A stretch of 64,000 bases of DNA from an uncultured Candidatus Saccharibacteria bacterium (GCA_964605735.1 CAZSDS010000001.1:480126-544125), one strand, 5' to 3'; counted from the first letter of the stretch, positions 162 to 54,494 are shown. The notes: a model not told the origin generated them from the sequence alone. Program-made: numbers and translations.

Positions 162-413
162 GCGGTTACTGCAACTTACAAATCGACGAATATTTTTGGT
201 TTAGGGGAAGTTAGGTTAAATTCCTACGCTGTGCCGCAACCGTGAATTCTTTACAAGAATCAAGCCGGGATACCTCAACCAAAATACGTGCAAGCTACTC
301 CCGAGCAGGAGCAGGCAGATTTTTTTTCGAAAATATTCCACTTGAAAAAATCAACCTTCCCCTGCTTTGAGCGGGAGAAGGTTTTTTCTTTCCAGGAGGA
401 TGAAGTGAAGAAG

Positions 414-2915: not shown

Positions 2916-3516
2916 ATTTGCAAAATCCCACAATAAAGGATTTTATAAGAGTAGGATTTATGCGGTCCTGTAAGGCAGAGGACCGCGAGCGCTGTGAGTA
3001 GATTTCAGACAATTAAAAACAGTTCTGGCGCAACCCAGTCAGCGAAGCCTCCAAGAGGAGGACCAGATTGCGTCGGAACCGTATGTACGTATATTAGAAC
3101 ATTCAGATTTTCGCGCACTTGTCAGTTTGTATCTTTAGCAGTTCAATTTAAGCAAGCATTTTGTGCAAACAAATTCCTTATGTGGATAGCCCCAGTGAAG
3201 CAACTCAAAACCCCGGCGATATCCGAGGTTTTGCTGTACTCAAAATCTGAGCAGTTCAGATGTTTCCCGGCCCGGTAAACGAACCCGGAATATTTTCGAA
3301 CATAGTGATCCTTACAAGCCCACTATATATCTCTTATAAAGAACACTACTCTGTTGAATTTTAAATCCCTCACCCCTTTCTTTAAGTTCTGCTTATCGCA
3401 GAATTAATGCATCCGGTACGAATATTCTGCCCTACCCCGACCTTTGCAACAATTGATTATTCGTACAAACGAACACGCAAATAAATTCTTCTATTTAGTA
3501 ATCTCACACAAATTTT

Positions 3517-7677: not shown

Positions 7678-8405
7678 GTTAACAGCTTGCTGTAAAGTTG
7701 GGTGTAGTACGCCCGTTCCAGATCATAAGTGCCACTGCTGCGGTCAATTTTGTTCATTTGATCAGGATGAACCCGGTAAAGGCTGAGGTAAGAATCGATC
7801 AAATACAATTTTACCTTCTTGCTGGCGAGTTTCAGCCACATGTCAAAATCTTGCGTGCGAAGTTTAGGGTTCCAATACCCTGACTTCTCCACCGCCTCCT
7901 TTCGTAATGTCACTGTGCCATTTGGAATAAAGCACCTGTGCCATAAGCTGAAGAAAAGATCATGCTTCGGTTCATAATTGATGTTGTACTCCTTCAAGTC
8001 ATCAAAAAGCCGGTTATTCACGTCAATATACAAGAGTCGACCATAAGACCATAGCGCCTTAGCGCTCTGTTTATGGAAATTATAGCGAATCTGCAGGCTG
8101 GATAGCGGCAACATGTCATCGTCATCCAGAGGAACTATCAAATCTCCTTTTGCCCTTTTATATCCCACATTCAAAGCATCGCCTGCCCCCCAATTTCTTC
8201 GATTTTTTACGTATTTTATGCGTTTGTCTTTCCGGGCAAACTCTTTGACCAGCTTCTCTGTCCGGTCTGTTGAGGCGTTATCGACTATTATGTGCTCATG
8301 GGCAAACCCAAACTCTCTTTGGTTCTGCACGCTTAGGATGGTTTGTGGCAAAAAACTGTCAGCCCTGTTATGCGTCGGGGTCAAAACTGAAATTATATTG
8401 TTCAT
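7662..8405 (-). CDS. glycosyltransferase family 2
   Basis: N-terminus ISVLTPTHNRADSFLPQTILSVQNQ...HEHIIVDNASTDRT...VPLDDDDMLP carries the GT2 DxD signature. Confidence 0.85.
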   Translation of the reverse strand: MNNIISVLTPTHNRADSFLPQTILSVQNQREFGFAHEHIIVDNASTDRTEKLVKEFARKDKRIKYVKNRRNWGAGDALNVGYKRAKGDLIVPLDDDDMLPLSSLQIRYNFHKQSAKALWSYGRLLYIDVNNRLFDDLKEYNINYEPKHDLFFSLWHRCFIPNGTVTLRKEAVEKSGYWNPKLRTQDFDMWLKLASKKVKLYLIDSYLSLYRVHPDQMNKIDRSSGTYDLERAYYTQLYSKLLTKKSR

Positions 8406-10976: not shown

Positions 10977-11372
10977 TTTCTTCTCAAGCAATAAACAGGC
11001 AGAGTTTATACAATATCGCTTACCGCCCTTATCAGGCGGGCCATCGTCAAACAAGTGACCTAAATGAGAACCGCAGTTTTTGCATACCACTTCAGTGCGG
11101 ACCATCCCATGGCTGTTATCTTCATGCAATTCTATGTTTTTTAAATTTACCGGATCCGTAAATGACGGCCAGCCTGTTCCGGAATCAAATTTGGTTTCTG
11201 AAGAAAACAATTCCTGTCCGCACGCCGCGCATTTATACATCCCTTGTTCGTGTGAATCGTAATACTTGCCCGTGAAAGGAGCCTCAGTCCCCTTTTCCCT
11301 TAAAATTTTATACTGCTCAGGAGTCAGCTGTTCCTTCCACTCCTGTTCAGTTTTGGGTTTCTGCATTGTCAT
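10974..11372 (-). CDS. msrB: peptide-methionine (R)-S-oxide reductase
   Basis: CAACGQELF...GWPSF...[16 protein letters not shown] is the SelR/MsrB zinc and catalytic signature. Confidence 0.9.
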
Positions 11373-38458: not shown

Positions 38459-38923
38459 TCAAGCTTGCGGTTCAGAAAGGACTTTAATTCGGGCCAGCGC
38501 CTGAGGGAGTTTATCGTTGAAGTATTCAACCAGCTCATCAGGCACATCCTGCGTTATAGAAAGAGTAACTTTGCCATTGTTTTCTTCCAGGTCATACCTT
38601 TCCGTGCCGCCAGTCCATTGGTCGTCTCTTTTTTCTATCCCCCCGTCATCTTTAACCACAATATCCGCGATTCGGGTAAATAAAATGTGCTGGTTTGGAA
38701 CCAGTTTTTCCACCCTACTGGTCACGCCATAGCGGACTCCGCCATCGCTGTTCCCTATGAAATTAATTTCGTTACCTTCTTCCAGCTTGCCTTCCATGTA
38801 GGTGCCTTCGTCTATAAAGCCTGACCAGTCACGAAAAGTCTGGTCAGACCAAAGCACTTCCCAAACTTTCTCTTTGGGTGCGTTGATTTCTATTGAATGT
38901 TTCATCTCATTCATTTTGCTCAT
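38459..38923 (-). CDS. SRPBCC-family protein (AHSA1/polyketide-cyclase-like)
   Basis: IEINAPKEKVWEVLWSDQTFRDWSG is the Activator-of-Hsp90-ATPase/SRPBCC N-terminal pattern. Confidence 0.8.
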   Translation of the reverse strand: MSKMNEMKHSIEINAPKEKVWEVLWSDQTFRDWSGFIDEGTYMEGKLEEGNEINFIGNSDGGVRYGVTSRVEKLVPNQHILFTRIADIVVKDDGGIEKRDDQWTGGTERYDLEENNGKVTLSITQDVPDELVEYFNDKLPQALARIKVLSEPQA

Positions 38924-40834: not shown

Positions 40835-41662
40835 TTATTTTGCTTCGTTTTTGAGATGCACCATTCTTTGAGGAATTGGGATCCTGATTCCTTCCTTATC
40901 AAAAGCGATTTTGATTCTTCTCCGCAGTTCGCCCATAACATCCCACTGCCTGATCGGCTTGGTATCTCCCAGAATTTTGATAACCACTGCTGATTCAGCG
41001 AAATCATCCACACGGTAAAATTGCGGTGGTTTGATGATATCTGCTTTCCATTTCGGGTCCTCTGCCAGTTCATGGCCTATCTCGTTTACGAGTTTGATTA
41101 CTTTTTCGAGATCCGCCGCATAGTCAACCCTGAGGTTGATATCCACTCTGGACCAAGTTTTGGTCAGGTTTGAAACTTTTTTTACCTCACCATGAGGGAC
41201 ATGATGCACTGTGCCGTTTAAGTCCCGCAAGGTAGTCATGCGCAAGCTGATGTCTTCCACGAGGCCGCAAGTGTCTCCAAAGCAAACCACGTCCCCTACT
41301 CGATACTGGTTTTCCATGATTATGAACAGCCCGCTCACCAAGTCTTTTATCAGGTACTGGCCCCCAAATCCAACTGCCAAGCCGGCCACCCCAGCCGCGG
41401 CCAGGAGAGGACCGATGTTTAAACCCATTTCAGAGAGCAGCATCATTCCAGCCGTAATCCAAACCAATATGCTTACAGTCCCCGCAATAATACGGATAAG
41501 AGTATTCTCTCTTTTTATCTCCGCCTCTTTGTCCATAGTTTCCCCGGAAACTACGCTTTTGCGAATTACCCTTTCTATCAGACGGTGGCCGAATTTATGG
41601 GCTATATATGCTCCGATAAGTATGGAGAAAACAGCAACTCCGCGTTCAAATATTTGTTCCAT
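40835..41662 (-). CDS. small-conductance mechanosensitive channel (MscS family)
   Basis: Three TM helices and LAAAGVAGLAVGFGGQYLIKDLVSGLFIIMENQYRVGD are conserved MscS pore/beta-domain motifs. Confidence 0.85.
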   Translation of the reverse strand: MEQIFERGVAVFSILIGAYIAHKFGHRLIERVIRKSVVSGETMDKEAEIKRENTLIRIIAGTVSILVWITAGMMLLSEMGLNIGPLLAAAGVAGLAVGFGGQYLIKDLVSGLFIIMENQYRVGDVVCFGDTCGLVEDISLRMTTLRDLNGTVHHVPHGEVKKVSNLTKTWSRVDINLRVDYAADLEKVIKLVNEIGHELAEDPKWKADIIKPPQFYRVDDFAESAVVIKILGDTKPIRQWDVMGELRRRIKIAFDKEGIRIPIPQRMVHLKNEAK

Positions 41663-41867
41663 GTGCTAAAAAGGTTAATGGCATGTCTGTTTATTATAGT
41701 AGTTTTTCTTCTTTGCTTAAACACTTTGACTGTGGAAAAATATTTTTCCAATGTTTTTGCTTAGAAAGTTTTTCTTTTAGTACGATTCCGGTCTCAGCAG
41801 AAAAATTGGTAATGGTAAATCTAAACTTTGGATAAAACAAAAAGCACCTCTTTTGAAGAGATGCGCT

Positions 41868-41950
41868 TTGTTTGGCTCAACATCGTGAACAACGTTGGAA
41901 ACATACTTCAGAGGCAGAATCAGTATGTTTATATACCTGATTTACAATCT
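41868..41950 (-). repeat. conserved 3'-UTR element, copy a (family of three: 41868-41950, 46534-46612, 47108-47169)
   Basis: All three copies share TTGGCTC(A/C)(A/G)ATCG(G)TGGAC(A/G)A...TTAGA. Copies a and b also share CAGTAT(G/A)TTTAT(A/G)TACCTGA(T/C)TTA. Each copy sits between a minus-strand stop codon and a different terminator hairpin. Confidence 0.5.
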
Positions 41951-41960
41951 GCCCGATAAA

Positions 41961-44411
41961 TTACTTGGTAACTGTGAATACAGAACTTACTGTAAAACTC
42001 CCATCAAGATTTACTAATTGAATTTTATATTGGCCTGGTTTTACTTGAGTATCTGCTCCACCCTCAAAACTACCATTTGAATCTACAAGTTGAGCCGTCC
42101 AATATAACTGTTTAGCAGTGCTGCCAGCATATACTTGCTTCGTGCTTATATATCCCGTAAAACCGCTATTATCTGCAGGGATAAGCATCAAGTTTATTTC
42201 GCCTAACGTTGGACCGTCCCATTTAAGTAAATTGTTACCACCTTGCTTCATTGTCGTAGGGACAACAAAATTCGTAGCTTTAATGCCTGAAACATTATCG
42301 AATTTTATACTGCTTACCATTTTTAATATAGCATCTCTATCTGTTGTATTATTCCATACCACTTCTATACGCCCACAAGAAATACTAAAACTTGAATCGC
42401 ATTTAGTCCATGCAGATACTGTATCCGTAATGTAATATCTTTTCATTCCTAAGCTTCCAGAAGTCCAAGTCCTTACAGTTGCGTTTTTACCACCGACTTT
42501 TTCAGTTGATGTCGTAGGAGTTACATTTGGATTGTTTTTGAAATCAAACCCGCCTTTAGGGACTATAGCCATATAGTTTCCGTAATCAGAGGAATCTCTA
42601 CTCCATAAGTATCTGCCAGTTTGGCTTTCTAAAGCCCAATTTTTTGGTATTGATACCTGATAATGGTCATCAGTATTTATGAAAGGTATAGCATCCGAAG
42701 TGCCGCTTGTGGAATTAGAACTTTGAGGATTCCTGAAATCCAAAGGCTTTTTATACATATCACTTATATCACTGGAGGTAAGAGTTGCTTGATATTCTGC
42801 ATCTAGTCCTTTAATTTCCCAAATACCTAAATCTAAGCTTGATGCAATCAAATAAACTAAGGTATCTCCGTCCAGATCTGCAGCAACTGCCTTCATATCT
42901 GGAATATAACTATCTACTTTTTCAAGATTACTGGCGTGATATTTACTTGGTAAGCTCTGAAGAGCTTTAAATATGCGGTCTTGTCCAGCCACAGTAGAAT
43001 CGTCTGTTTTTCTATTCCAAGCAGGGTCATCAATCATAGTTAATTCAACCCTGGCCTTACCAGCCTTTTCAATATATAAAAACAATTTATCCAGATGACC
43101 TTCTAACCGCCCTTTGCACCAAATATCGTTAGGGTCATTTATGAAATCCAATAATTCTGTTGACAGTAATCCATCCTCATCTTTCAGAACAGCATAAGTG
43201 TATCCTTCCCCGCCTAATTGTGCCAGTCCAGTATTTTTGGTATCTAATACCTCTACAATCTCGAATTTCATATCTGAACGGACATAATTCACGTTATAGT
43301 ATTTATCTTTATAACGATGTGCCCCAACTGAATCAATATCACTTATACAAGACAAGTATCGATTAATTTCTTGAGCTCTTGGTGCATTCGAAGCGACTAA
43401 GTTATCTTGTTCATAAGCCATCGGTATACCAAGTGTTATAATTTTGCCGACATTAGGGTCATTCTTTTGAACTTGGTCTTTTGTTCCGCTATTAACAACA
43501 AAATAAATCGGCCATCCAACCAGTAACACTAAACCTATCCCGATAACAATTGAGGTATATTTCCAAATTTTCTTTTTTCGAATTTGTTCTGGAGTAAGCT
43601 CAGGTGCTGCTGGGACTGGAATTGATTGGCTAGGATTATTCGGGTCAACCATCATCGTAGGTGCAACAATCATTTGTTGTTTCAACAAGCCCCTAAAGTA
43701 AGCGTAGACTAAGGCAACTGGCCCCAAGAAAGGTAAGATAAAAAAGAATGGAAGGAAAAGTATAAATAAATTGAACGCTGCAATTTGAGAAGAGAAAGAA
43801 CCCGAAGTAAATGAAAGTGAAGTAAGTATTCTAAACAGCTCGACAACTACGACAAACAAACCCGTCCAAACTACTAATAAAGAACGGCTCCATTTTTTCC
43901 AGAAATAAAACAGTATCAAAAGCGAAATAACAAAATCTGTGAACGACAAAATTTTAGTTACCAAAGCTTGTCCTAGAAAAACTCTACTTAATATGCCATT
44001 AGCAATGTAATAAACCAAATAAGCATTCCCGATAGTAACCAAAATTAAAACGATTATCTTTTCAATACTTTCTAGTAATCTAGGCTTCGGTTGATTTATT
44101 TCGATTGGTTCTGGATTTTTTCTATATTTTATATAGTAAGCAATACATCCAATTATATAACCATATATAAGCTGCCCCAATAAAGGAGTTAAAAACAATG
44201 TTAACAATCCACCCTTCTTAAACAAAAGAGCGGCTCCTACGCCGCTCCAAAAGAAACCCCCAACAAAAGCTTGGACAATTATACTTGAAACTATATTACC
44301 TTTAGGTAGAACCGCTGCTAAAGAAAACCCAACTATCATTAAGATAATTGCAGTTGCAAAAGCCCAAGCTATCCTGTGTTTGGTTGGCTTAAAGGCTTGT
44401 TTTATTGTCAT
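41961..44411 (-). CDS. large polytopic membrane protein (816 aa) with C-terminal extracytoplasmic domain; hypothetical
   Basis: About 10 N-terminal TM helices, then a ~500-aa soluble region. No recognised domain. Confidence 0.7.
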   Translation of the reverse strand: MTIKQAFKPTKHRIAWAFATAIILMIVGFSLAAVLPKGNIVSSIIVQAFVGGFFWSGVGAALLFKKGGLLTLFLTPLLGQLIYGYIIGCIAYYIKYRKNPEPIEINQPKPRLLESIEKIIVLILVTIGNAYLVYYIANGILSRVFLGQALVTKILSFTDFVISLLILFYFWKKWSRSLLVVWTGLFVVVVELFRILTSLSFTSGSFSSQIAAFNLFILFLPFFFILPFLGPVALVYAYFRGLLKQQMIVAPTMMVDPNNPSQSIPVPAAPELTPEQIRKKKIWKYTSIVIGIGLVLLVGWPIYFVVNSGTKDQVQKNDPNVGKIITLGIPMAYEQDNLVASNAPRAQEINRYLSCISDIDSVGAHRYKDKYYNVNYVRSDMKFEIVEVLDTKNTGLAQLGGEGYTYAVLKDEDGLLSTELLDFINDPNDIWCKGRLEGHLDKLFLYIEKAGKARVELTMIDDPAWNRKTDDSTVAGQDRIFKALQSLPSKYHASNLEKVDSYIPDMKAVAADLDGDTLVYLIASSLDLGIWEIKGLDAEYQATLTSSDISDMYKKPLDFRNPQSSNSTSGTSDAIPFINTDDHYQVSIPKNWALESQTGRYLWSRDSSDYGNYMAIVPKGGFDFKNNPNVTPTTSTEKVGGKNATVRTWTSGSLGMKRYYITDTVSAWTKCDSSFSISCGRIEVVWNNTTDRDAILKMVSSIKFDNVSGIKATNFVVPTTMKQGGNNLLKWDGPTLGEINLMLIPADNSGFTGYISTKQVYAGSTAKQLYWTAQLVDSNGSFEGGADTQVKPGQYKIQLVNLDGSFTVSSVFTVTK

Positions 44412-44650
44412 TTTGTTTCATTGTAATTTAATGATGCCTTTTGCTCATTCTAGCGGAAAACTGAGCAGAACGCTAGTTGGAACTAACCGAGAAAACTTTT
44501 GAGTTAGCTACTTACGCCACAAAGTATTTATTACTACCAAAGGTAAAGAAGGGTTAGAACTCAAGAAAGAAATTCTATTGGCTTTAGGTCCAACCCCAAT
44601 AGTAATAAACAAAGAACCAACCATTGAACCGAATGAATGGTTTGTTCCTA

Positions 44651-44845
44651 TCATACTCCATATCTGACCCCACTATCACTGTTCCCTATGAAGTTGACCT
44701 CGTTACCCTCTTTCAATTCACCATCCATATATGTTCCTGGATCAATAATACTAGACCAGTCCCGGAAAGTCGTATCACTCCAAAGCACTTCCCACACTTT
44801 TTCTCTAGAAGCGTTTATTTCAATAGAATGTTGCATTTTATTCAT
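44651..44845 (-). pseudogene. truncated paralogue of the SRPBCC gene at 38459..38923 (first ~64 codons only)
   Basis: Translation MNKMQHSIEINASREKVWEVLWSDTTFRDWS...NFIGNSDSGVRYGV is ~75% identical to the N-terminus of the full gene. Nucleotide identity includes 14-15-mers. The reading frame ends with a stop where the full gene continues. Confidence 0.6.
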
Positions 44846-44861
44846 ACACTAATGATACACT

Positions 44862-45494
44862 TTAGAATAGATTGTCCGCTACGGATCTCAACCATGCTTT
44901 CGAGTACTCAACATCCTGCCTGGTCAACCCATGTCCTGCAGCTATTTTTTTAACTTCAGCGTCAGCTCCTTTAGCAGTCAATGCTTTGGTTAACTTATCC
45001 GTGTCTTCAGACCCTACCATTTCATCCATTAGTCCTGACAATATTAAAACTTTTGTTTGAGTCAACGGTGGCATTTTTTTGGACAAAGCCTCAGACATGG
45101 GCCTGAAAAGAATACCCATTTTCAAAACCTCTGGTTTGTCAGTCATCAAATGAAGAGCAATATTGGCTCCATTGGAATAACCTACGGCAACAAGGCCGTT
45201 TAGGCTAAACCCGTAAGTTTTTGAACTTTCGACGATAAAATTTGCAAGCTCGTTTGAACGTTTCTCTAAATCCTTAAAATCAAATACACCTGGTGACAGC
45301 CTTTTGAAAAACCTTGGCATGCCATCTTCTATAACTTGCCCTCGCGGACTGAGGATGTTAGCACTAAAATCTAAGTCCTCACCCAATGGGACCAAGTCAT
45401 GTTCGTTTCCACCCGTGCCGTGCAGCAACAATAAAGTCAGTGGACTTTTTTTATCTATATAGATATGTTCGAAACCTTGAATCGCTTTATTCAT
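44862..45494 (-). CDS. phospholipase/carboxylesterase-family alpha/beta hydrolase
   Basis: LLLLHGTGGNEHDL and GYSNGANIALHLM (GxSxG) are typical of PF02230-like esterases. Confidence 0.8.
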   Translation of the reverse strand: MNKAIQGFEHIYIDKKSPLTLLLLHGTGGNEHDLVPLGEDLDFSANILSPRGQVIEDGMPRFFKRLSPGVFDFKDLEKRSNELANFIVESSKTYGFSLNGLVAVGYSNGANIALHLMTDKPEVLKMGILFRPMSEALSKKMPPLTQTKVLILSGLMDEMVGSEDTDKLTKALTAKGADAEVKKIAAGHGLTRQDVEYSKAWLRSVADNLF

Positions 45495-46440
45495 TTTTAG
45501 GCAATATCAATTTAGGCAAAACTTTTTCTATTTCACTACGATGCGGTTCATACAGTGGTGTTAGGCTTAAGGATGTGCCTAGTTTTTCTTCCGGCTCGTC
45601 TATGGTGAACCCTGGACCATCTGTAGCTATTTCGAACAACACTCCACCCGGTTCATGAAAATAAATTGATTGAAAATATGTTCTGTCTATGATCGGTGAA
45701 ACGTTTGCTCCAATGCCGGATAATTTTTTGTGCCATTGCTCTTGCACCGTACCATCCTTAACCCGAAAAGCCACATGGTGGATAATTCCTGTGCCCATGC
45801 TGCCGGGAAAAAAATCAGGAGCCTCTCTAACATCTATGAAAGTACCCAAACCACTTTCCGGCAAAGAATACCTGTAGGTATTTTCGGTTTGCCCTAGCAG
45901 TTGATACCCCATCATTTCACGAAGAAACTTGTCCGTATCCTCAAAGCCATCTTCTAATAAAGTAACCGAATAAAAACCTCGGATAGCGTGCTCTGTTGGG
46001 ACGCCGTAACCGGCAAAAACTTTTTTATTCACGGTTTTATTGTCAGCCACAAGTTCAAGCAATATATCATCCGGGTCCCTAAAACTTATATAGTTATCAA
46101 TAAACCTGGTACCCTTATTTTTTTCAAATGGGATACCCTTAGCAGTAAGTCGCCCGATCCAAAATTCCATTGAGCTCTCGGGAATTGAGAAGGAAATAGT
46201 AAATGCCTGGTTAACACCCTTTTGACCTTTCCTGCCACCTTCCCAAGCAAAAAAAGTTAAAGCCGTGCCAGGAGAGCCCACTGAATCACCAAAATACAAA
46301 TGATAAGTGCCAGGATCATCCTGGTTTACAGACAATTTTACAAACTTCAAGCCTAAAACCTGTGTGTAGAAGTCTATATTACGTTGCGCGTTATTTGTTA
46401 TGGCTGTTATATGATGCAAACCTAAAATTGTGTCTTTCAT
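45487..46440 (-). CDS. two-domain VOC-family ring-cleaving dioxygenase-like protein (MhqO/YfiE-like)
   Basis: LGLHHITAITNNAQRNIDFYTQVLGLKFVK plus a second VOC module (HHVAFRV...). Glyoxalase/extradiol-dioxygenase fold. Confidence 0.75.
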   Translation of the reverse strand: MKDTILGLHHITAITNNAQRNIDFYTQVLGLKFVKLSVNQDDPGTYHLYFGDSVGSPGTALTFFAWEGGRKGQKGVNQAFTISFSIPESSMEFWIGRLTAKGIPFEKNKGTRFIDNYISFRDPDDILLELVADNKTVNKKVFAGYGVPTEHAIRGFYSVTLLEDGFEDTDKFLREMMGYQLLGQTENTYRYSLPESGLGTFIDVREAPDFFPGSMGTGIIHHVAFRVKDGTVQEQWHKKLSGIGANVSPIIDRTYFQSIYFHEPGGVLFEIATDGPGFTIDEPEEKLGTSLSLTPLYEPHRSEIEKVLPKLILPKNE

Positions 46441-46533
46441 ATACTCATGAGTATACCCCTGGTTTTAATAAAAATGAAGCAATATTTTTCTCTAAAATAA
46501 AAAAACGTCCGACCACAAGGGTCAGACATTTTT

Positions 46534-46612
46534 CTTTGGCTCAACATCGGTGGACAATGTTAGAGCTAATATCCAAAACAAGAACAGTATATTTATGTAC
46601 CTGACTTAAGTA
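46534..46612 (-). repeat. conserved 3'-UTR element, copy b
   Basis: See copy a. Followed, in the direction of transcription, by terminator hairpin gacc-acaag-ggtc plus a T/A run at ~46500-46535. Confidence 0.5.
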
Positions 46613-46615
46613 ATG

Positions 46616-46900
46616 TTAACCAAAGTATCCCGCACTAAACAGAGATAAAAATGCAAATATTGCTAATAAAACAACTATTGTCCAAAGCACATATCTTAGC
46701 AAGTTATTCTTACCAGTGTTTTGAATACCTGAAGAGAAAAATCCAATTATAGTAAGGGTTGGAATAAGCACAAAGGCTCCGAAAAATGCATAAGGCGAAA
46801 GTAATGAATGAACAATAAATTGAATTCGAGAACAAGTGCTAAGTACTAGAAGTCCATAAGTAGTTATTGGTGCATTTCCCTGAATAAGACGTAATTCCAA
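46616..46900 (-). CDS. small hydrophobic membrane protein; adjacent overlapping ORF 46839..47045 suggests a possible frameshifted single gene
   Basis: Two overlapping minus-strand ORFs, both hydrophobic, overlapping by ~60 nt in different frames. Confidence 0.35.
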   Translation of the reverse strand: MELRLIQGNAPITTYGLLVLSTCSRIQFIVHSLLSPYAFFGAFVLIPTLTIIGFFSSGIQNTGKNNLLRYVLWTIVVLLAIFAFLSLFSAGYFG

Positions 46901-47107
46901 TTACAACACATACAACTAACAATAGGACAAGATATGTCATAAAACCTTTTACAAAACCATCAAATAACCTGTTTTCTGAAGATGGTTTCTGGGAAACTGG
47001 ATTGTCTATGTTTGTTTCCATATATTTTTTCTTTAGCGTAAGCATATCACAGGCATAATTCTAGCGTCCACACACTTGAACAAAAAACACCAATAAACAT
47101 TGGTGTC

Positions 47108-47169
47108 CTTTGTTGGCTCCGAATCGTGGACGATATTAGAACGTACTATATGCAAATAGGTAGTGCGTC
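47108..47169 (-). repeat. conserved 3'-UTR element, copy c
   Basis: See copy a. Followed by the perfect hairpin caccaat-aaac-attggtg with an A-run and T-rich flank at ~47047-47100. Confidence 0.5.
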
Positions 47170-48477
47170 TTATTCTGGAATGCTTTGATCTTGTGAAGGA
47201 ATATCCTCCCATTCTCCTTTATCATTTTTTCTCCTATTCATAACTTCGGGAGGAAAACGGGTCCACTTACCTTTCTTACCTCTAACCATTCGTTTTATTA
47301 CAATGTGTCTAGCTTGATCAGAATCAAGAATGTTATTAGGTTCTGGCGCACTTTTTGCCTGTCGTTCAAACTCCCGAATTTTATTCATAAGTTCTTCGGA
47401 TGCTTTTGTCTTTGGAGGAGGTCCATCATTCAATTTTCTTTGTCTCCAATCTTTTGCCATGTATTTGTCCCATAAACCACAAATCATGAATGAACCATCT
47501 TGCGGCGGAAACATAGCAAAACTTGAAACGCCTTTTGCTTTGGTCTCATCAGATAACGCATTGTAATGTTGATCTAATGCTTTAAGGTCAGCTTTAAGAT
47601 CAGGGCCAGCAATGAAGGTTTGATCATCACGGACAAAATACGGGGCAACCTGCTGATGTAATTTATCACTCGAAGTAAATACCTTGCAGAATGGCAAGTA
47701 ATAAAGATAGGCCATGTCAATTTTATGGCTCTGTCGACCTCTTCCAATCAAATCAGAGGCAATGGCAAGATAAAAAAACATATCAACCGACAAAACATAA
47801 GCAAAGTAAGGCGCAAACTTTCTAATGGGTGGCGTTCCTAAATTTTTCCAGCGTTCTAATACAAGTTTTTGAGAATGAAAAGGAATACCAATTAGCCACA
47901 TTCCAAATACCAGCATGTGTTCTTTATTTGGTCCATCAATAAGTCCATCAGTTAAAGACTTAATCTCGCTTAAATTTTTAGGTTTGCCGGAGTTAAAAAA
48001 TTGCTGAAATAAAAGATATTTATCTTCAAGATTGATATTGGATAAAGCCGCTCGCCATCCTTTTGCGTGCAAGCGCTCAATTTCCATAAAATCTCCATCT
48101 TGCCATCTTTCAAAGGCTTCTTCCTCGGGCGACTGCTCAAACATAATTCCATAGCCTTCCTCTGTTTCTACATGCTTGCCACCACCGATTATTGGTCGAC
48201 CACTCATTTCAACATTCCCTTGGCCGGTCAATTCTCCGGCCAAAAGTGTCTGATGATGGACACCCGGCCGCGCACTCATATCAGGAGTTTTGTAAGCAAG
48301 GCTTCCTACAACTTCTTCTGGTTTTCGTCCAGACTTAATTTCTTTTTCCAGATCAGCAAGGGTCTCAATGAAAAATAATGGAGTAATGTTGCTATTGAAA
48401 AAATTATCAAGCCACATTGCTTCGTCAGGATTCAAACTTTGAAGAAATGATTTATCAAAAATTAGACTTGGACCCAT
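47170..48477 (-). CDS. hypothetical protein (435 aa), third gene of a tightly coupled three-gene operon
   Basis: Start is 1 nt after the upstream gene's stop. No recognisable motifs. Low-GC composition. Confidence 0.6.
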   Translation of the reverse strand: MGPSLIFDKSFLQSLNPDEAMWLDNFFNSNITPLFFIETLADLEKEIKSGRKPEEVVGSLAYKTPDMSARPGVHHQTLLAGELTGQGNVEMSGRPIIGGGKHVETEEGYGIMFEQSPEEEAFERWQDGDFMEIERLHAKGWRAALSNINLEDKYLLFQQFFNSGKPKNLSEIKSLTDGLIDGPNKEHMLVFGMWLIGIPFHSQKLVLERWKNLGTPPIRKFAPYFAYVLSVDMFFYLAIASDLIGRGRQSHKIDMAYLYYLPFCKVFTSSDKLHQQVAPYFVRDDQTFIAGPDLKADLKALDQHYNALSDETKAKGVSSFAMFPPQDGSFMICGLWDKYMAKDWRQRKLNDGPPPKTKASEELMNKIREFERQAKSAPEPNNILDSDQARHIVIKRMVRGKKGKWTRFPPEVMNRRKNDKGEWEDIPSQDQSIPE

Positions 48478-48478
48478 A

Positions 48479-49228
48479 TCACGGGATCTCCTTTTGCAGA
48501 TATCTGCTTAAAATACGTTTTCCATGTTCTTCCGGAATATGTATAACTCGCAATTCCCCGGATTCACTAATTGCTGCCTCTATGACCCACGGACGCATGG
48601 AAGAAGTTAACGGAGATATTACAAAGATGTAAAGCATTCCGCTAATTAGGAAATTATATCCAATAACGCCGGATTCCATTCTGATTTTTTTAGGTTCTGA
48701 AATTAGCTCCTTGGGCAATGAAGCGTGTTTAGTATAACTGTTGATTATACAAGGAAAAAGATCACTTGGTCCGGGATCCTCTTCCACCAACATTTTACGA
48801 ACTACTTCTTCGTATTTTCCAAGTGATACTAAACCAAAGAATGGTCGTTTTGAAATACTTGCCCTCCATAGTATGGACAATAGAAACAGTTTGAACTTTT
48901 TGTAATCAATTCCAGTCGCAAATGTAAACTCTACTCCATGTTGATTCTTTTGATTCTCAAATCTGATATTGACGCCTTTTGGGAGTTTCCCACCGTAGAG
49001 AATAAGTCTTCCATAGGTTTCGAACTTACTTAATTTCGCCTCACAATCCCTGCAGAGAATCCCAGCTTCGAATTCGCCTGTATGAAGTTTCCTCTCCTTA
49101 TCCCAATCATCCGATTTGAATCTAATTAAGCTATGGTTTTCATCGAAAATATCAGAATACATAAAATCAGGAATGATATGGGACTTGTTAACTAATTGTT
49201 TATCGCAAAGACAAAGTTTACAAATCAT
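48479..49228 (-). CDS. HNH-like nuclease-motif protein (249 aa), second gene of the three-gene operon
   Basis: N-terminus CKLCLCDKQLVNKSHIIPDF...DENH...CRDCEAKL has a Cys pair, His, Asn/His and a second Cys pair arranged like an HNH/zinc-finger nuclease motif. Start overlaps the upstream gene stop by 4 nt. Confidence 0.55.
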   Translation of the reverse strand: MICKLCLCDKQLVNKSHIIPDFMYSDIFDENHSLIRFKSDDWDKERKLHTGEFEAGILCRDCEAKLSKFETYGRLILYGGKLPKGVNIRFENQKNQHGVEFTFATGIDYKKFKLFLLSILWRASISKRPFFGLVSLGKYEEVVRKMLVEEDPGPSDLFPCIINSYTKHASLPKELISEPKKIRMESGVIGYNFLISGMLYIFVISPLTSSMRPWVIEAAISESGELRVIHIPEEHGKRILSRYLQKEIP

Positions 49229-50844
49229 AATAATCGCTCCTGTTCTTCTGACATCGGGACTTGCAGATCGTCTTTGTAGAATTCCTTAAATTTTTTATCC
49301 AAGAAGTTCGGAGAGGGTTTTAGGTTATTCTCCTTAAACGCTTTTGATATTTCAGCAGATACTCCGGAAGCCGGATTTTGATTTGCCCTTTTTGCTACTT
49401 CGTCAATCTCGATATAGTCTTTGACGTAGTAGTAGTTTTCTAATTCTTCCACGGAAAATAAAGTATATTCAAAGTCTTTAATCCCTGGACATTTGCTATC
49501 CATGCCTTCTAAGGCTTTTTTGATATCTTCTTGGTAGATAGTGGTTGAAACAAGCGGGATATCATAGAAAATACCTACGCAAGTTAGCTTCTTTTTTTCA
49601 AAGCCTTTTAGTTCCGGATATTTGCCAACATCCGAACACCTATCATACATTTGTTTGATAGTTTTTGTTATTTTTTCAAAAACTTCTTTCCTAATTAAAT
49701 CAGGATCTCCTGTTTGCAATGTGCCTAATGGGAACTGATAACCTTTCGCTTCAAAGAGTAAAATATTTTCATCTTTATGAACTATCCAGTCAAAAAAAGT
49801 CTTCTTATCTTTTTTTGTGCCATAAGGGATACCACGCATAACAGCACTTTCTCCATACATGTCCTTCAATACCATCCCAACATACTCTTCAAACAATAAA
49901 CCGAAGTAATCACGGAATGTTTTTCCAATTGCATTTTCGAAGATCCAATACAAGCCCCTAAATGCGCCTTTAACATAAGCGCTAATGCTCGGTGCGATAT
50001 AATCATTTACGCCCAGTTTTACAATTGGTTTTTCCCATAATGGGTTATATCGATTCTTGGTGTATTCAGGTTGTAATTTTGCATTATATTTCTGATCGAG
50101 ATTGCGTAGTTCTTCTGGACTCCCAGCAAGCAGCGCTAAGATCGCATTTACTTTTTCGTCAGTAAGAACTTCGGCTAAACCTCCTTGGATAGTTGATCCG
50201 GTAAACTTACCCATATTGAATCTTGGCGAATTCATAATCGCCGCAAAAATAGCGAACGATAATTTAACGTATTCTTGTATGCTCATACCAAATTTTTCAA
50301 AAAGGATTTTGTCCAAATTGATTTGACTGTTTATGTTAATTTGGGCTGACTGAAAAATAAGCAACTGTCGCGTAAAAGCATCTTTGATATCTTGCTGACT
50401 ACTAAACTGCTGGTATGTCATAGGGACCAGTAAAGCTGCTATCCCTTTTTTGTTTATTGGTTGGACAAGGGTGCTGAAATAGATATTAAATAATGCTAAG
50501 ACATCATCCTTATTTTTTATGCTTAAACTTTTATGGTTATTGGAGCCAGAAATGAGTAATATATTGCTAATGTATTCAATTGCGAAATCAGTAAGAAATA
50601 AGCCGGTAAGTTTGTGGATTGCAAAGCCAACCTTTTCTTTTTTAATGGCAGAATTTTCATGAAAATTATTATCAAAAAGTTTGTTTGAAATATCCCCTAA
50701 AATTGATAGCGCCTCGTCCAGCTTGTACCCTTTCAAGGCATTACAAAACTCCTCCTGAGATACTGTCAGTTCGGGCTTGTTGCATAACGCTGATAGTCTT
50801 GGTTCAGCTTCCAGAATGTATTTACCTTGTTGATCCCTGAACAT
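49225..50844 (-). CDS. hypothetical protein (539 aa), first gene of the three-gene operon; C-terminal region contains a possible PD-(D/E)xK-like motif
   Basis: FDWIVHKDENILLFEAKGYQF has D...E-x-K spacing reminiscent of a restriction-endonuclease-fold core. No P-loop found. Very AT-rich relative to flanks. Confidence 0.55.
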   Translation of the reverse strand: MFRDQQGKYILEAEPRLSALCNKPELTVSQEEFCNALKGYKLDEALSILGDISNKLFDNNFHENSAIKKEKVGFAIHKLTGLFLTDFAIEYISNILLISGSNNHKSLSIKNKDDVLALFNIYFSTLVQPINKKGIAALLVPMTYQQFSSQQDIKDAFTRQLLIFQSAQININSQINLDKILFEKFGMSIQEYVKLSFAIFAAIMNSPRFNMGKFTGSTIQGGLAEVLTDEKVNAILALLAGSPEELRNLDQKYNAKLQPEYTKNRYNPLWEKPIVKLGVNDYIAPSISAYVKGAFRGLYWIFENAIGKTFRDYFGLLFEEYVGMVLKDMYGESAVMRGIPYGTKKDKKTFFDWIVHKDENILLFEAKGYQFPLGTLQTGDPDLIRKEVFEKITKTIKQMYDRCSDVGKYPELKGFEKKKLTCVGIFYDIPLVSTTIYQEDIKKALEGMDSKCPGIKDFEYTLFSVEELENYYYVKDYIEIDEVAKRANQNPASGVSAEISKAFKENNLKPSPNFLDKKFKEFYKDDLQVPMSEEQERLL

Positions 50845-50944
50845 AAAATTAACGTTTATTCCTTATATTTTAGCATTTTGCAGCACTTAATTAAATCAGC
50901 TATAACTGTTATAATTTACTCACAATTCATAGTAGCCTAAACCG

Positions 50945-51080
50945 AACAGAAATGGTCGGCATGGCGAAAAAAGTCCCATGGAAGATACTGAACCCTACGT
51001 TCAGCGCTCTTCCATGGGCCATGCCGGGAAACTGGCATGGGGACCGCAAGGTCCCGGCTGGCGTGGGGCTTTGTGTTTTA
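50945..51080 (+). other. GC-rich structured element (two or more stable hairpins) upstream of a 48-codon membrane-peptide ORF
   Basis: Read directly: ccatggaaga...tcttccatgg (10-bp stem) and gggacc-gcaa-ggtccc hairpins. No ORF with a plausible start. Confidence 0.3.
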
Positions 51081-51104
51081 CGCCGGCAGAAAGGATAAAA
51101 ACCC

Positions 51105-51251
51105 ATGGATATCATTTGGGGAATCATAGTTCCGGTGTTGATAGGACTTATCGCTTACGGCCTCACCAAAGGCCTAAAATGGCTCGCTGGGCGATCAAAG
51201 ATCTTCAAAAAGGTAATTGATCTGGCTGAAAGACCGATTGGGAAAAAATAG
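51105..51251 (+). CDS. 48-aa hydrophobic peptide (single TM; holin/type-I-toxin-like)
   Basis: aaggataaaaaccc precedes the ATG. Translation MDIIWGIIVPVLIGLIAYGLTKGLKWLAGRSKIFKKVIDLAERPIGKK. Below the size cut-off of the ORF track. Confidence 0.35.
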   Translation: MDIIWGIIVPVLIGLIAYGLTKGLKWLAGRSKIFKKVIDLAERPIGKK

Positions 51252-51453
51252 GTGCACATCCGTTCATCTTGACGGCAAAAAGATAAACATTTACGATTAA
51301 TCTAACAATTGAAAAAGTCTTGTTTAGTTATTAGGAATTGATTGCTGTCAGCAATCGGGACAAAAGCCCTTACCCAATGACTACGTTCAAAAATGACTCA
51401 ACTGGTATAACAGTTGGCTAAACAAGTATCTTGAATAAAGATCGGCACAAAAG

Positions 51454-51510
51454 CCCATAAATTTGAGAATTACAATTTGTAATTCTGAGGTTTATGGGTT
51501 TTTTGGTTTT
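51454..51510 (+). terminator. 45-bp imperfect palindrome followed by TTTTTTGGTTTTTT (strong terminator, or candidate recombinase att/operator site)
   Basis: cccataaatttgagaattacaa|tttgtaattctgaggtttatggg then a T-run. Confidence 0.45.
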
Positions 51511-51524
51511 TTAACCTAAAATTT

Positions 51525-51818
51525 ATGCCCGGAGAAACATCAAAACTTAATGGAATGAAAGGTGGCCGGCCAAGCGGTAGCAAGGCAGCTCACACTCTTG
51601 AAGCGCAGACTCTTAGGCAATATCTAATAAGCCGAACGATTGAAGAGCATAAGCCCTTAGTTGAGGCTTTGATCCGGAAAGCAAAACGCGGAGATTTGGG
51701 TTCAATTAAAGAGGTTTTCGAAAGGGTGCTGGGCAAGGAGAAAGATCCAACCACACCGAAGATTATTGTCCAAACGCTTCAAAGAAGCATAGAGGAAGAC
51801 AGAGAAAAATACGCTTAA
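51525..51818 (+). CDS. hypothetical basic protein (97 aa) within the integrated element
   Basis: ORF. No SD, and it starts directly after the terminator-like palindrome. Confidence 0.4.
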   Translation: MPGETSKLNGMKGGRPSGSKAAHTLEAQTLRQYLISRTIEEHKPLVEALIRKAKRGDLGSIKEVFERVLGKEKDPTTPKIIVQTLQRSIEEDREKYA

Positions 51819-52310
51819 TTATATTCCCGAGGCACAAAAGTCCGTTATGGACTGGGTAGAACCAACGCCTCGGGACTACTCAGCCCTTAATGGATTTTTA
51901 TGTTATTGACCGAAGAAGCATTAAAAGAATTTGAAGAAATTTGGCATAAAGAAAACCCTGATCGCCTAATTTCTCCGGAAGAACTCTCAGTACTTGCTGA
52001 ACGAGTTTTGAATGCTTTTAAGGTTATTCTGTCGAAATAATGACTATACAGGTTTGATGCGATATTCGCGCTAAACCTGTGGAGTTATTCCATAGTCGCA
52101 AGGGGCATACATGTAGTGCTGCAAAGACGACTTAAAAGATCTTGGCAAAGATTTACATGCTTCCGTATCCGCCACCTCGATATACTGTCTTCACATCAGA
52201 ACCTCAATGGAAACCTCATGCGCGAGCGCATAGGAAACATTAGGGGAAGAACAGGTAGAGAGGGAGAGGAAGGGAAGGGGTTGGGGTTAAGAGTTAATCC
52301 GGGGAGCGCT

Positions 52311-52484
52311 ATGTCGACAAATTTACAAAAGAGAGAAACGAAGCAAATTAGAATAGAAATCGGACTTCATCGTTCACTTAAAATAGCATCGGCTCAAAAC
52401 GGCAAAACAATGTCCAAGCTGCTTGATGAAATCTGTGAACAGTATTTTAAGCATGAAAACCTTAAACATGATAAAATTAAATAA
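52311..52484 (+). CDS. ribbon-helix-helix (Arc/MetJ/CopG-like) DNA-binding protein
   Basis: Internal Met start preceded by a purine/G-rich tract. KQIRIEIGLHRSLKIASAQNGKTMSKLLDEICEQYF is an RHH beta-strand plus two helices pattern. The ORF-track entry 52116..52484 probably over-extends it. Confidence 0.55.
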   Translation: MSTNLQKRETKQIRIEIGLHRSLKIASAQNGKTMSKLLDEICEQYFKHENLKHDKIK

Positions 52485-52494
52485 ATAAAGACCC

Positions 52495-54251
<1,757 letters not shown>

Positions 54252-54261
<10 letters not shown>

Positions 54262-54494
54262 ACAATTGATTTCAAAAACTCTTTGCCGTATCCACTCTTG
54301 AGCCGTTTTTCATGAATACGGGCCTCGGCTCTGGTTTTATACACTTCTGTATAAAACAAGGTCCAGGGTCTATATCCTTTCGTTGAAAAAACTTGGCCTA
54401 GGTTATGTTCTCGCAATCTACGACCTACATTGGTAGTCATACCAACATAAATTCTTCCATGTGCTTCGCTTTTTAGAGCATAGACTATGTACAT
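54252..54494 (-). CDS. GIY-YIG nuclease-superfamily small protein (80 aa)
   Basis: MYIVYALKSEAHGRIYVGMTTNVGRRLREHN is the GIY-YIG motif. Stop is 1 nt from the tRNA-Asn 5' end. A TATAAT box lies 9 nt upstream of the ATG. Confidence 0.8.

Follow-up and report, generated by a model that had tools for sequence, protein, structure and literature searches.

The window, i.e. the whole 64,000-nt stretch of DNA analysed here, contains a region of low GC content (0.36–0.43 between ~42 kb and ~54 kb versus ~0.42–0.50 in the flanks) that ends at a short repeat, copy a, which is the predicted distal boundary of a genomic island (Table 1). At the other island end lies a gene for a large serine recombinase (LSR), as in LSR-type integrative elements at the 3' end of a small-RNA gene, and adjacent to it a tRNA-Asn gene. 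The LSR ORF crosses the sequence TTGGCTC, the complement of the tRNA-Asn core GAGCCAA at 54187–54193, and stops within the tRNA-Asn gene, with its last 13 residues (WLGRLDSNQRPSD) being tRNA antisense. The cargo encodes proteins of 539, 249 and 435 aa without family matches, a small membrane protein with an apparently frameshifted gene, a glyoxalase-fold protein (317 aa), a dienelactone-hydrolase-like protein (210 aa) and an 816-aa protein. The 3' end of tRNA-Asn, CCCGAGCCA, is followed by AGAAAG and a terminator of its own; this right-hand arm sits within the LSR coding region, where its T run is translated as KKKK, and NK(R/K)K is found at the same position in LSR homologues as well. Since tRNA-Asn ends in the core shared with the repeats, followed by AGAAAG and a terminator, the resemblance to the repeat ends described in the initial annotation is real.

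GAGCCAA recurs as a direct repeat of the target 3' end in three copies (a, b and c) of a longer element. A degenerate pattern fitting all three matched three times in the window versus 0.00 times expected from shuffles, and an HMM built from the copies recovered only these three from the window (nhmmer, E-values of 2e-22, 5e-22 and 9e-14; range about 1e-10 to 1e-22). Their existence was thus confirmed, while the coordinates given initially (41868–41950, 46534–46612 and 47108–47169) were slightly off. The accompanying statement that each copy directly follows a minus-strand stop codon holds for copies a and b, where the ORFs 41961–44411 and 46616–46900 stop 1–6 nt before the element, but not for copy c, which overlaps the last 19 nt of the minus-strand ORF 47170–48477. 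On the minus strand, every copy continues into GAGCCAA, 1–2 nt and AAAG or AAAA, and then into its own, differing hairpin with a T run. A different terminator after each copy, as described before, is borne out by the sequence, although the terminator scan scored only those of a and c and missed that of b. In the peptide they encode, copies a and c deviate both from one another and from the consensus of the family, copy a being devoid of RT and copy c of YIYIP.

Table 1. Features of the tRNA-Asn island and its surroundings; units and attachment-site assignments are predicted
Feature	Position	Strand	Description and basis
mscS	40835-41662		core gene beyond terminator a
Terminator 3' of copy a	41844..41866	-	sequence, terminator scan
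Copy a	41872-41959	+	TTGGCTC att core and intact 28-codon LSR tail fragment WLNIVNNVGNILQRQNQYVYIPDLQSAR, stop at 41957-41959
Unit 3	41872-46535		far end copy a
Cargo genes	41961..50844	-	all convergent with tail fragments
Terminator 3' of copy b	46498..46530	-	sequence
Copy b	46536-46609	+	att core and tail fragment with 1-nt insertion; reads WLNIGGQC and stop, past the shift VDNVRANIQNKNSIFMYLT and stop
Unit 2 (577 bp)	46536-47112		far end copy b
Terminator 3' of copy c	47078..47107	-	sequence, terminator scan
Copy c	47113-47188	+	att core TTGGCTC and detached LSR tail fragment WLRIVDDIRTYYMQIGSASYSGML and stop
Unit 1 (carries LSR)	47113-54193		far end copy c
Module upstream of LSR	50934..52484	+	holds LOOT RNA and two small ORFs
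LOOT RNA	50934-51055		in module upstream of LSR
97-aa ORF	51525-51818		weak DUF5681 match
122-aa ORF	52116-52484		weak omega-repressor/RHH match
LSR gene (577 aa)	52495..54228	+	Pfam PF00239 (Resolvase) and PF07508 (Recombinase); NCBIfam XisF/CcrB/CcrC-like; translation
Right-hand arm (P') adjoining tRNA-Asn	54150..54186	-	AGAAAG, terminator hairpin and T run; sequence
tRNA-Asn(GTT)	54187..54261	-	ARAGORN; Rfam 72.8 bits; sequence

The position of each copy between a stop codon and a terminator could suggest a cis-acting 3'-UTR RNA or small RNA on the minus strand, co-transcribed with the cargo and ending at the terminators, in which the hairpin or the tRNA-like GAGCCA end acts. Single-sequence folds indeed contain the imperfect 3' hairpin proposed initially, with z = -2.5 for copy a, and changes within it are wobble-compatible. 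However, z is weak for copies b (-1.0) and c (+0.4), and as a conserved structure the hairpin did not hold: RNAalifold gave 8 pairs at -3.5 kcal/mol with 0 compensatory pairs for 23 copies and no consensus structure for 154 unique copies, mutual information across the copies revealed no helix-like signal, and Rfam returned no family match for the element. In addition, many copies elsewhere are not followed by a terminator, and the 'wobble' changes amount to N/D and V/I replacements once codons are read in the antisense frame.

It is this antisense frame in which the alignments show a protein-coding constraint, on the strand opposite the proposed RNA. In the frame anchored at TGG, entropy at codon positions 1, 2 and 3 amounts to 0.76, 0.55 and 0.96, and 40 of 52 copies are open, compared to at most 1 in the other antisense frames. 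The synonymous share of single-base codon differences is 0.46 in the TGG-CTC frame (0.50 within the distal 18 codons) versus 0.12–0.33 in the other five frames, and stops interrupt 11 of 57 rows versus 44–57 of 57. With a covariation-backed structure lacking and the constraint being protein-coding on the other strand, the conserved 3'-UTR RNA element put forward in the initial annotation is largely refuted, and we consider it very unlikely. Two observations had been named there as speaking against the element, a lack of additional copies and a lack of covariation; many copies exist, whereas covariation was indeed absent.

The peptide encoded on this strand, WLRIVDDVRT..YIYIPDL followed by a stop, is the native C-terminal tail of the LSR family, a family of 560–600-aa proteins with more than 3489 homologues of the window LSR, in which PF13408 is present, too. 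The LSR ORF continues in frame through TTGGCTC into the element, with a stop at the element edge, in L082, L018, L012 and L131/L015. Comparison of the homologues further shows two classes of C-terminal tail. The native type, ..D(D/E/K)VRT(W/Y)..Y.IP.F, was counted by regular expression in 72 of 120 homologues, and the tRNA-antisense type, ..(W/Q)DSN(P/L).., in 33 of 120, a number inflated by an internal GSNL motif and reduced to 10 by a stricter pattern. Relative to an FEP anchor, VRT lies at +29 (61 proteins) and DSN at +27 (8 proteins); we convert these offsets, which come from another subfamily, into a 5-nt shift of a TT(C/A)GAACC motif. LSR genes or their 3' remnants are located 10–43 nt past element ends at four loci (L054, L082, L087 and L123) and 18 nt past tRNA-Asn in L107. 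As the window LSR ends in a tRNA-antisense substitute tail, attP should lie inside the LSR gene; in-frame continuity, the two tail classes and the coding constraint together point to a split integrase gene, with attP within the ORF and the 3' fragment separated. On this coding evidence, each repeat is, on the strand opposite the proposed RNA, the last ~28 codons of an LSR gene, and not an RNA element.

The element is short, multi-copy and intergenic, and in copy a an ATG four codons upstream of TGG opens a 33-codon ORF, so that a MITE-like repeat or an independent micro-ORF gene could be envisaged. Such an origin is hardly credible, because the peptide is the C-terminus of a 560–600-aa protein family and the copies have nothing in common on the N-terminal side of the frame, which is usually closed within 9–24 codons, leaving no conserved start. 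The miniature repeat suggested in the initial annotation fares no better, since inspection of the alignments by eye brought up neither terminal inverted repeats nor target duplications, and copies are restricted to one-orientation arrays at tRNA-Asn.

Beyond the window, a check for additional copies of the kind recommended initially yielded many: the pattern search located the element at 22 loci in genomes and at least 120 in metagenomes, and the family comprises hundreds of copies in Patescibacteria-type genomes (mostly Patescibacteria MAGs) and metagenomes, usually arrayed in one orientation downstream of tRNA-Asn. Two or more copies were present in 34 of 143 sources, and orientation was uniform in all multi-copy sources but one. 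More than 85% of the junctions in arrays have no LSR gene or detectable remnant alongside, which argues that many units are recombinase-less. The proteins of the window genome occur in only one NCBI assembly and one Logan run, and exact look-ups returned no contexts; neither an excised circle nor an empty attB or a product of recombination was encountered for this genome, so that the in-frame attP-like junctions are the indirect evidence of excision or integration. In the relative L144, an LSR 65% identical to the window LSR adjoins tRNA-Asn, and the far end of the 8.6-kb island carries a 30-nt core identical to that of copy c.

The copies are anchored at tRNA-Asn: 9 of 20 tRNAs at element loci are tRNA-Asn, 8 of them on the same strand and 35–7000 nt upstream of the copies. 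The 3' end of CPR tRNA-Asn, GCGGAGCCA, equals the element end CGATGCGGAGCCA, with a 9-nt repeat at other loci. One and the same module stands downstream of tRNA-Asn in L062 and downstream of the element in L091 and L089; its homology begins at the shared GGAGCCA, and many homology blocks stop 0–4 nt from the GAGCCA end. These exchanges show that the ends of tRNA-Asn and of the element behave as interchangeable left recombination partners, which lends the resemblance between them its meaning. The shared GAGCCA end and a GGTTC.AA motif might also be taken to mark the copies as decayed pieces of tRNA-Asn, either displaced halves or pseudogenes. We regard this as practically dismissed, since past the recombination core the copies are not alignable to tRNA: with the last 9 nt fixed, global alignments of the element consensus to four tRNA-Asn genes scored 29–40 and thus within the range of shuffles (means 25–31, maxima 44–48). 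Moreover, neither ARAGORN nor Rfam calls a tRNA at the copies, the GGTTC motif is displaced by 5 nt, and coding constraint acts on the other strand.

We propose, with a probability of roughly 85%, that each element is an attR-type junction of an integrative element targeting tRNA-Asn, whose attP lies within its own LSR gene, ~28 codons ahead of the stop. As long as the element is free or circular, its LSR ORF would read ...S-W-L-R-I-V-D-D-V-R-T-...-Y-I-Y-I-P-D-L-stop, with the codons TGG CTC being antisense to the GAGCCA in which tRNA-Asn ends. Crossover, presumably catalysed by the LSR, would take place within this shared core at the tRNA 3' end, where we infer the exact crossover point to lie. 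Integration would put the body of the LSR gene beside the tRNA, where it gains a short substitute tail from tRNA antisense, while the last ~28 codons would be moved to the far end of the island, tail-to-tail with the last cargo gene; conceivably, this tail swap has a regulatory role. The first 30 nt of the tail fragment (TTGGCTCCGCATCGTGRACRAYGTTAGAACC) would also serve as attP-type left half-site, and the other ~18 codons would owe their conservation to coding for the recombinase tail. The 3' part of tRNA-Asn is the corresponding putative left half of the attachment site (left arm of attB, now in attL).

In the element, the stretch from a T-loop-like motif, GGTTCTAA, through GAGCCA spans 30 nt, compared to 25 nt for GGTTCGAA...GAGCCA in the tRNA. 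This 5-bp difference appears to match the known attP versus attB spacing of the zinc-ribbon-domain motif of LSRs, an argument that consists of one 7-of-8 motif match with a geometry fitting within about 1–2 bp. In the Listeria A118-type LI integrase, this 9-bp motif occupies attP positions 16–24 and lies 5 bp nearer to the centre in attB (PMC3783163), and here the element's putative motif, GGTTCTAA(C), and that of the tRNA, GGTTCGAA(T), likewise differ by 5 bp in their distance from GAGCCA. The system is unlike phage LSR sites in that attP is placed inside the recombinase ORF and the right-hand half-sites in the window display little symmetry, with little conservation beyond AA-N-AAAG.

Copies c, b and a would accordingly represent the attR-type junctions of three tandem units, left by three successive insertions, in an order that we infer. 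Copy c is probably the cognate attR of the LSR-carrying unit 1, and copy b is the putative decayed attR of unit 2. Every unit would bring its own right-hand flank (AAAG and terminator), which would end tRNA-Asn transcription after insertion and would account for the unrelated terminators behind a conserved block. Under this model, terminator c is the flank carried in by unit 2 and terminator b the one carried in by unit 3, while terminator a probably represents the flank that tRNA-Asn originally had in the chromosome (B'). Canonical LSRs are not known to recombine attP with attL, and tandem build-up would therefore need relaxed pairing or other events. From the three readings offered in the initial annotation, that of att remnants from serial integrations at tRNA-Asn is thus supported and can be sharpened to a detached LSR 3' end plus att core (~85 nt conserved), while the RNA element and the miniature repeat are not upheld.

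The arrays could instead reflect integron-like gene capture, in which an LSR working in trans excises recombinase-less cassettes ending in the LSR-tail/attP-left half-site as circles and puts them back beside tRNA-Asn, the copies being active sites and not relics. As in integron attC arrays, a conserved site comes after each of the mostly co-oriented, unrelated genes, and the presumably newest unit is beside a fixed attachment point: arrays reach up to 6 copies spaced 0.4–3.5 kb apart, downstream ORFs are forward in 92 and reverse in 32 cases, and 114 proteins fall into 102 families. Most tail fragments are still open, identical modules stand behind differing left partners, and one 3.6-kb contig (L013) has a 141-nt terminal overlap and two copies. 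However, circles or population variants were not seen, nor was evidence of an LSR accepting arbitrary right half-sites, and the codon signature could be inherited from functional ancestors. About 20% of the fragments, including copy b, are broken, and LSR 3' remnants persist at several junctions, both of which fit the decay of once-autonomous units. Gene capture is therefore unlikely in our view. The site itself is not an integron attC: it has no conserved imperfect palindrome or bulged hairpin and, by eye, no R''/R' core sites in the consensus, being conserved in sequence because it is coding, and an IntI tyrosine recombinase is absent from the commonest Pfam families in 247 neighbouring proteins.

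Among known systems, SCCmec is likewise an LSR-driven (Ccr) island at the 3' end of a conserved gene with short direct repeats at both ends, and forms tandem composite arrays that include recombinase-less pseudo-elements. LSR, 3'-end insertion, end repeats and tandem recombinase-less units are hence common to both, but SCCmec targets rlmH instead of a tRNA, and its ccr genes are not split by integration. With 65 and 53 bits against the CcrB and CcrC models, far under the cut-offs of 900, the window LSR is not a Ccr equivalog. The closest precedent are the ssrA islands of Dehalococcoides with their CcrB-like serine recombinase DsiB (McMurdie et al. 2011, PMC3146451). These are arranged in tandem behind a small-RNA gene; the 3' end of that gene recurs as a short direct repeat bounding every island, an additional conserved motif directly precedes the repeat, and about half of the islands are without an integration module (PMC3146451). 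The DsiB gene, reversed and adjoining attL, 'always overlaps attL at its 3' end'; its stop is reached only past the island, and the authors surmised that a 'requisite 3' gene fragment' completes it in the circle or in tandem arrays (PMC3146451). Differences concern the target, which is tmRNA there and tRNA-Asn in the Patescibacteria-type hosts here, and a second small recombinase of those islands, DsiA, of which no counterpart was seen in the window. DsiB C-termini are moreover described as divergent (PMC3146451), in contrast to the detached fragment under coding constraint and the family-wide conserved tail observed here.

The architecture of attP within the recombinase gene and a tRNA target is shared with the 'suicidal' integrases of the SSV1, pTN3 and pT26-2 type, where integration leaves two gene fragments flanking the element, and only the free form or a second element brings back a complete gene (PMC8371274). 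Those enzymes are tyrosine recombinases, exclusively archaeal, and the split removes their catalytic domain (PMC8371274), whereas here a serine recombinase of bacterial hosts would lose only its last ~28 residues and gain a substitute tail. As a consequence, the integrated LSR gene may stay active.

The three conserved blocks reported in the initial annotation (the element, copies a to c) are real, as a degenerate pattern fitted to all three gave 3 matches in the window against 0.00 expected, and an HMM built from them matched only copies a, b and c, with E-values of 2e-22, 5e-22 and 9e-14. Their placement directly past a minus-strand stop codon could be confirmed for copies a and b, but not for copy c, which overlaps the last 19 nt of the neighbouring ORF. 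At its minus-strand end every copy carries GAGCCAA, 1–2 nt and AAAG or AAAA, followed by a hairpin with a T run, which indeed differs behind each of the three. The supposed likeness to the tRNA-Asn 3′ end also holds, since this gene terminates in ...CCCGAGCCA, after which come AGAAAG and a terminator of its own. The gene of a large serine recombinase (LSR) of 577 aa, with Resolvase and Recombinase domains, stops within the tRNA gene, and GC content drops from ~0.45 to ~0.37 between about 42 kb and 54 kb of the window. A promoter scan found no sigma-70-like site within the copies, and a TATAAAT stretch was therefore dropped as promoter evidence.

The suggestion that the block is a conserved RNA element did not stand. 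No Rfam family was matched at the copies at gathering or E-value thresholds, a MicC match of 32.8 bits being noise (cut-off 90), and single-sequence fold z-scores of the window copies were −2.5, −1.0 and +0.4. RNAalifold gave merely an 8-pair hairpin of −3.5 kcal/mol with 0 compensatory pairs on 23 copies and no structure on 154 unique copies, and mutual information on the copies revealed no helices. This removes a false lead, as the block is no new RNA motif. Origin from a decayed full tRNA-Asn was likewise rejected, as was an integron attC site, for which no core sites were seen by eye, no palindrome was conserved and no IntI ranked among the commonest Pfam families of the neighbouring proteins.

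The copies carry a coding signal on the antisense strand. Column entropy has a period of 3 in the frame anchored at T TGG CTC (0.76, 0.55 and 0.96 at codon positions 1, 2 and 3), and 40 of 52 copies keep this frame open across 27 codons, compared with at most 1 for any other antisense frame. In this frame 11 of 57 rows contain stops, versus 44–57 of 57 in the other five frames, and synonymous changes make up 46% of the single-base codon differences (50% over the distal 18 codons), versus 12–33% in the other five. The encoded peptide reads WLRIV(N/D)(N/D)VRTI.Q.Q..YIYIPDL.. and then a stop. At several other element-bearing loci (given L-numbers here; L082, L018, L012 and L131/L015) the adjoining LSR ORF crosses TTGGCTC in frame and ends at the opposite edge of the element. 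A search with the reconstituted LSR returned >3,489 homologues, the family exceeding 3,400 at E ≤ 1e-20. The best 120 of these >3,489 are 46–65% identical and mostly 540–630 aa long, and by regular-expression count 72 of the 120 end in the native tail, ..D(D/E/K)VRT(W/Y)...Y.IP.F. A second tail class, ..(W/Q)DSN(P/L).., is the tRNA T arm read antisense; it was counted 33 times with a loose pattern that also caught an internal GSNL motif and 10 times with a stricter one, and includes the window LSR, which ends in SWLGRLDSNQRPSD before its stop. From the two tail classes and the in-frame continuity we therefore place the attachment site attP within the LSR coding sequence, about 28 codons ahead of its stop, and regard these sequences as evidence that a 3′ fragment kept at the distal island end completes the gene. 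As a general trap, a sharply bounded conserved "intergenic" block past stop codons may represent an orphaned 3′ gene end belonging to the opposite strand.

Truncated LSR 3′ remnants lie 10–43 nt past element ends in L054, L082, L087 and L123, and 18 nt past tRNA-Asn in L107, so that older units decay. The LSR family seems to target several tRNAs, because a same-family C-terminal remnant in L083 overlaps a tRNA-Trp gene and homologue tails such as NPIVRRRWDSNP are unlike the Asn type. In L018, a 112-nt inverted duplication of the LSR 3′ end (99% identical) flanks a forward-oriented LSR gene right behind an element copy, which reflects an inversion or else an artefact of the assembly.

Further copies were found by pattern in species-representative genomes (22 loci, most of them from Patescibacteria and Saccharibacteria) and in at least 120 metagenome stretches, while two scans of viral contigs gave 0 matches. 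Common to all copies are about 85–90 nt, ...TTAAATCTGGWATATAAATATAC...GGTTCTAACGTYGTYCACGATGCGGAGCCA, where likeness usually ends. Between 2 and 6 copies, spaced 0.4–3.5 kb apart, occur in 34 of 143 sources, in a single orientation in all but one of these 34. The genes between them are unrelated across loci (114 downstream proteins yielded 102 Pfam families, and 133 further ones yielded 154); among them are methyltransferases, glycosyltransferases, radical SAM enzymes, restriction-modification genes, AbiEii and Fic. With a cargo that includes restriction-modification, Abi and Fic genes as well as methyltransferase and glycosyltransferase genes, the LSR family appears to shape the flexible genome of these ultra-small bacteria. 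Neither an all-against-all BLAST of ORFs from the 22 loci nor Pfam on 247 neighbouring proteins revealed a conserved neighbour family. tRNA-Asn accounts for 9 of the 20 tRNA genes in element loci, 8 of them on the same strand upstream of the copies, and these genes end in GCGGAGCCA, as the element does. One downstream module lies behind tRNA-Asn in L062 and behind the element in both L091 and L089, the homology starting from the common GGAGCCA, and many inter-locus homology blocks break off only a few bases from GAGCCA. In this site-specific junction, the end of the tRNA and that of the element can therefore replace each other as left partner, which bears out the earlier idea of reiterated att-site remnants in the form of tRNA-Asn-anchored arrays. 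The dnaG-rpoD-tRNA-Asn synteny is common to the window and the element-bearing metagenome contigs L093 and L107. A Portnoybacteria-annotated protein is among the LSR homologues. Together with the prevalence of Patescibacteria in the genome matches, both observations indicate a patescibacterial host rather than one from the Bacteroidota, and matches in Pedobacter and Flavobacteriaceae MAGs may be mis-binned. Some arrays (L093, L109, L137, L010) hold only the ~31–40-nt half-site part (GGTTCTAACGTCGTTCACGRTGCGGAGC) without the remaining tail, in L093 47 nt past tRNA-Asn, and L003 and L010 have an additional GGTTCTAACRTYGTYC repeat on the 5′ side. The 3643-nt contig L013 starts and ends with the same 141 nt, hence is either circular or a tandem that was collapsed, and contains two element copies, one broken by insertion, and two related ~1.7-kb segments.

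We propose a model in which attP lies within the LSR ORF, such that integration at the tRNA would leave the gene body there with a substitute tail read from the tRNA antisense and would move the last LSR codons to the opposite island end. In the element, GGTTCTAA begins 30 nt ahead of the GAGCCA end; in tRNA-Asn, the T-loop GGTTCGAA begins 25 nt ahead of it. LSR half-sites contain a 9-bp zinc-ribbon-domain motif at positions 16–24 in attP, and 5 bp nearer the centre in attB (PMC3783163). The tails are offset from the FEP anchor by +29 (VRT) and +27 (DSN), which we translate into two codons minus one base of phase, i.e. a putative shift of 5 nt, and the 5-nt shift recurs in an LSR subfamily with a different tRNA-derived prefix. 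This geometry would place the crossover at or just within the common GAGCCA, with an accuracy of about 1–2 bp. It would also explain why the first 30 nt are most conserved, as they would be used both as half-site and as codons. A T-loop mimic inside the ORF, read as DSN when integrated and as VRT when free, would put DNA-site and protein constraints on the same bases, which could aid att-site prediction for tRNA-targeting serine integrases.

The window island can accordingly be divided into three proposed tandem units, whose differing terminators are best read as right-hand flanks of successive insertions: each would once have stood directly behind tRNA-Asn, terminator a being presumably the original chromosomal flank. 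Copy a has an intact 28-codon tail, whose stop is separated by 1 nt from that of the convergent cargo gene. Unit 1 probably has its cognate end in copy c, because in the relative L144, where an LSR 65% identical to that of the window adjoins tRNA-Asn, a 30-nt core identical to that of copy c lies 8.6 kb away, with the tail WLRIVDDIRTYY... PADLOC found no matches among the cargo proteins, and exact-sequence look-ups of window proteins gave no usable strain for comparison. A LOOT RNA (RF03000) inside the island recurs in 3 other independent element loci of ~30 scanned, its orientation versus the arrays not being fixed, and may be cargo or part of the mobile element. tRNA genes can apparently be cargo as well, as seen in L131, where the tail fragment begins 8 nt past tRNA-Arg.

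Coordinates of features in the window and at other element-bearing loci
Locus	Position (strand)	Feature	Remarks
Window	41872-46535	Unit 3	glyoxalase-like, hydrolase-like and 816-aa genes; copy a
Window	46536-47112	Unit 2	small membrane-protein gene, apparently frameshifted; copy b with frameshifted tail
Window	47113-54193	Unit 1	LSR, two small ORFs, LOOT RNA, 539/249/435-aa operon, copy c
Window	41957-41959	Stop of copy a tail
Window	41961-44411 (-)	ORF next to copy a
Window	46616-46900 (-)	ORF next to copy b
Window	47170-48477 (-)	ORF overlapped by copy c
Window	52495-54228 (+)	LSR gene
Window	54187-54261 (-)	tRNA-Asn
Window	50934-51055 (+)	LOOT RNA	96 bits; about 1.4 kb upstream of LSR gene
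L012	3136-3249	LOOT RNA
L131 (= L015)	7805-7931 (= 3338-3464)	LOOT RNA
L104	3858-3982	LOOT RNA
Window	46616-47045 (-)	Two overlapping ORFs (94, 68 aa)	look like one frameshifted small membrane-protein gene
Window	44655-44845	191 nt between 816-aa and hydrolase genes (island gap)	75% identical to 38724-38914; possibly a gene fragment
Window	38724-38914	Part of 154-aa ORF (38459-38923)	outside island
Window	54252-54494 (-)	80-aa GIY-YIG nuclease-domain ORF	between rpoD and tRNA-Asn; overlaps tRNA 5′ end by ~10 nt
L144	9274-9426	Similarly placed ORF fragment	beyond tRNA-Asn
L131 (= L015)	10989-11224	tRNA-Phe and tRNA-Arg(TCT)	inside unit, just ahead of terminal tail fragment
L018	2343-2454, 3841-3952	Inverted duplication of LSR 3′ end
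L083	56-279	LSR C-terminal remnant	at tRNA-Trp
Window	180-297 (+)	Cobalamin riboswitch match	just over threshold, 34.4 vs 31.5 bits
L051	470-705	Group I intron	94.6 bits; metagenome locus

The closest described system are the ssrA islands of Dehalococcoides, which are tandem and bounded by tmRNA 3′-end repeats, and whose gene for a CcrB-like recombinase "always overlaps attL at its 3′ end" (PMC3146451). Completion of the gene by a 3′ fragment was suggested by the same authors (PMC3146451); this idea, a mere guess for those islands, now has sequence-level evidence. SCCmec arrays are analogous, but the window LSR scores far under the Ccr model cut-offs. Archaeal "suicidal" tyrosine integrases have the split-gene logic in common, while the enzyme class differs, and a recent review considers them exclusive to archaea (PMC8371274). 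No description of the tRNA-Asn/LSR family in Patescibacteria was found in the literature.

In its widest form, our reading is that tRNA-Asn of Patescibacteria serves as an integron-like gene-capture platform run by a serine recombinase and that the tail swap acts as a switch of directionality or activity, a joint claim that we hold to be unlikely as a whole, at roughly one chance in five. Recombinase-less cassettes, which may end in an attP-type half-site made of the last 28 codons of the recombinase, may be inserted and excised in trans, and the recombinase may carry its native tail when free or placed behind a further unit, and a tail encoded by the tRNA when integrated. If both platform and switch were true, bacteria would have, in a serine recombinase, their own counterpart to the "suicidal" integrases of archaea.
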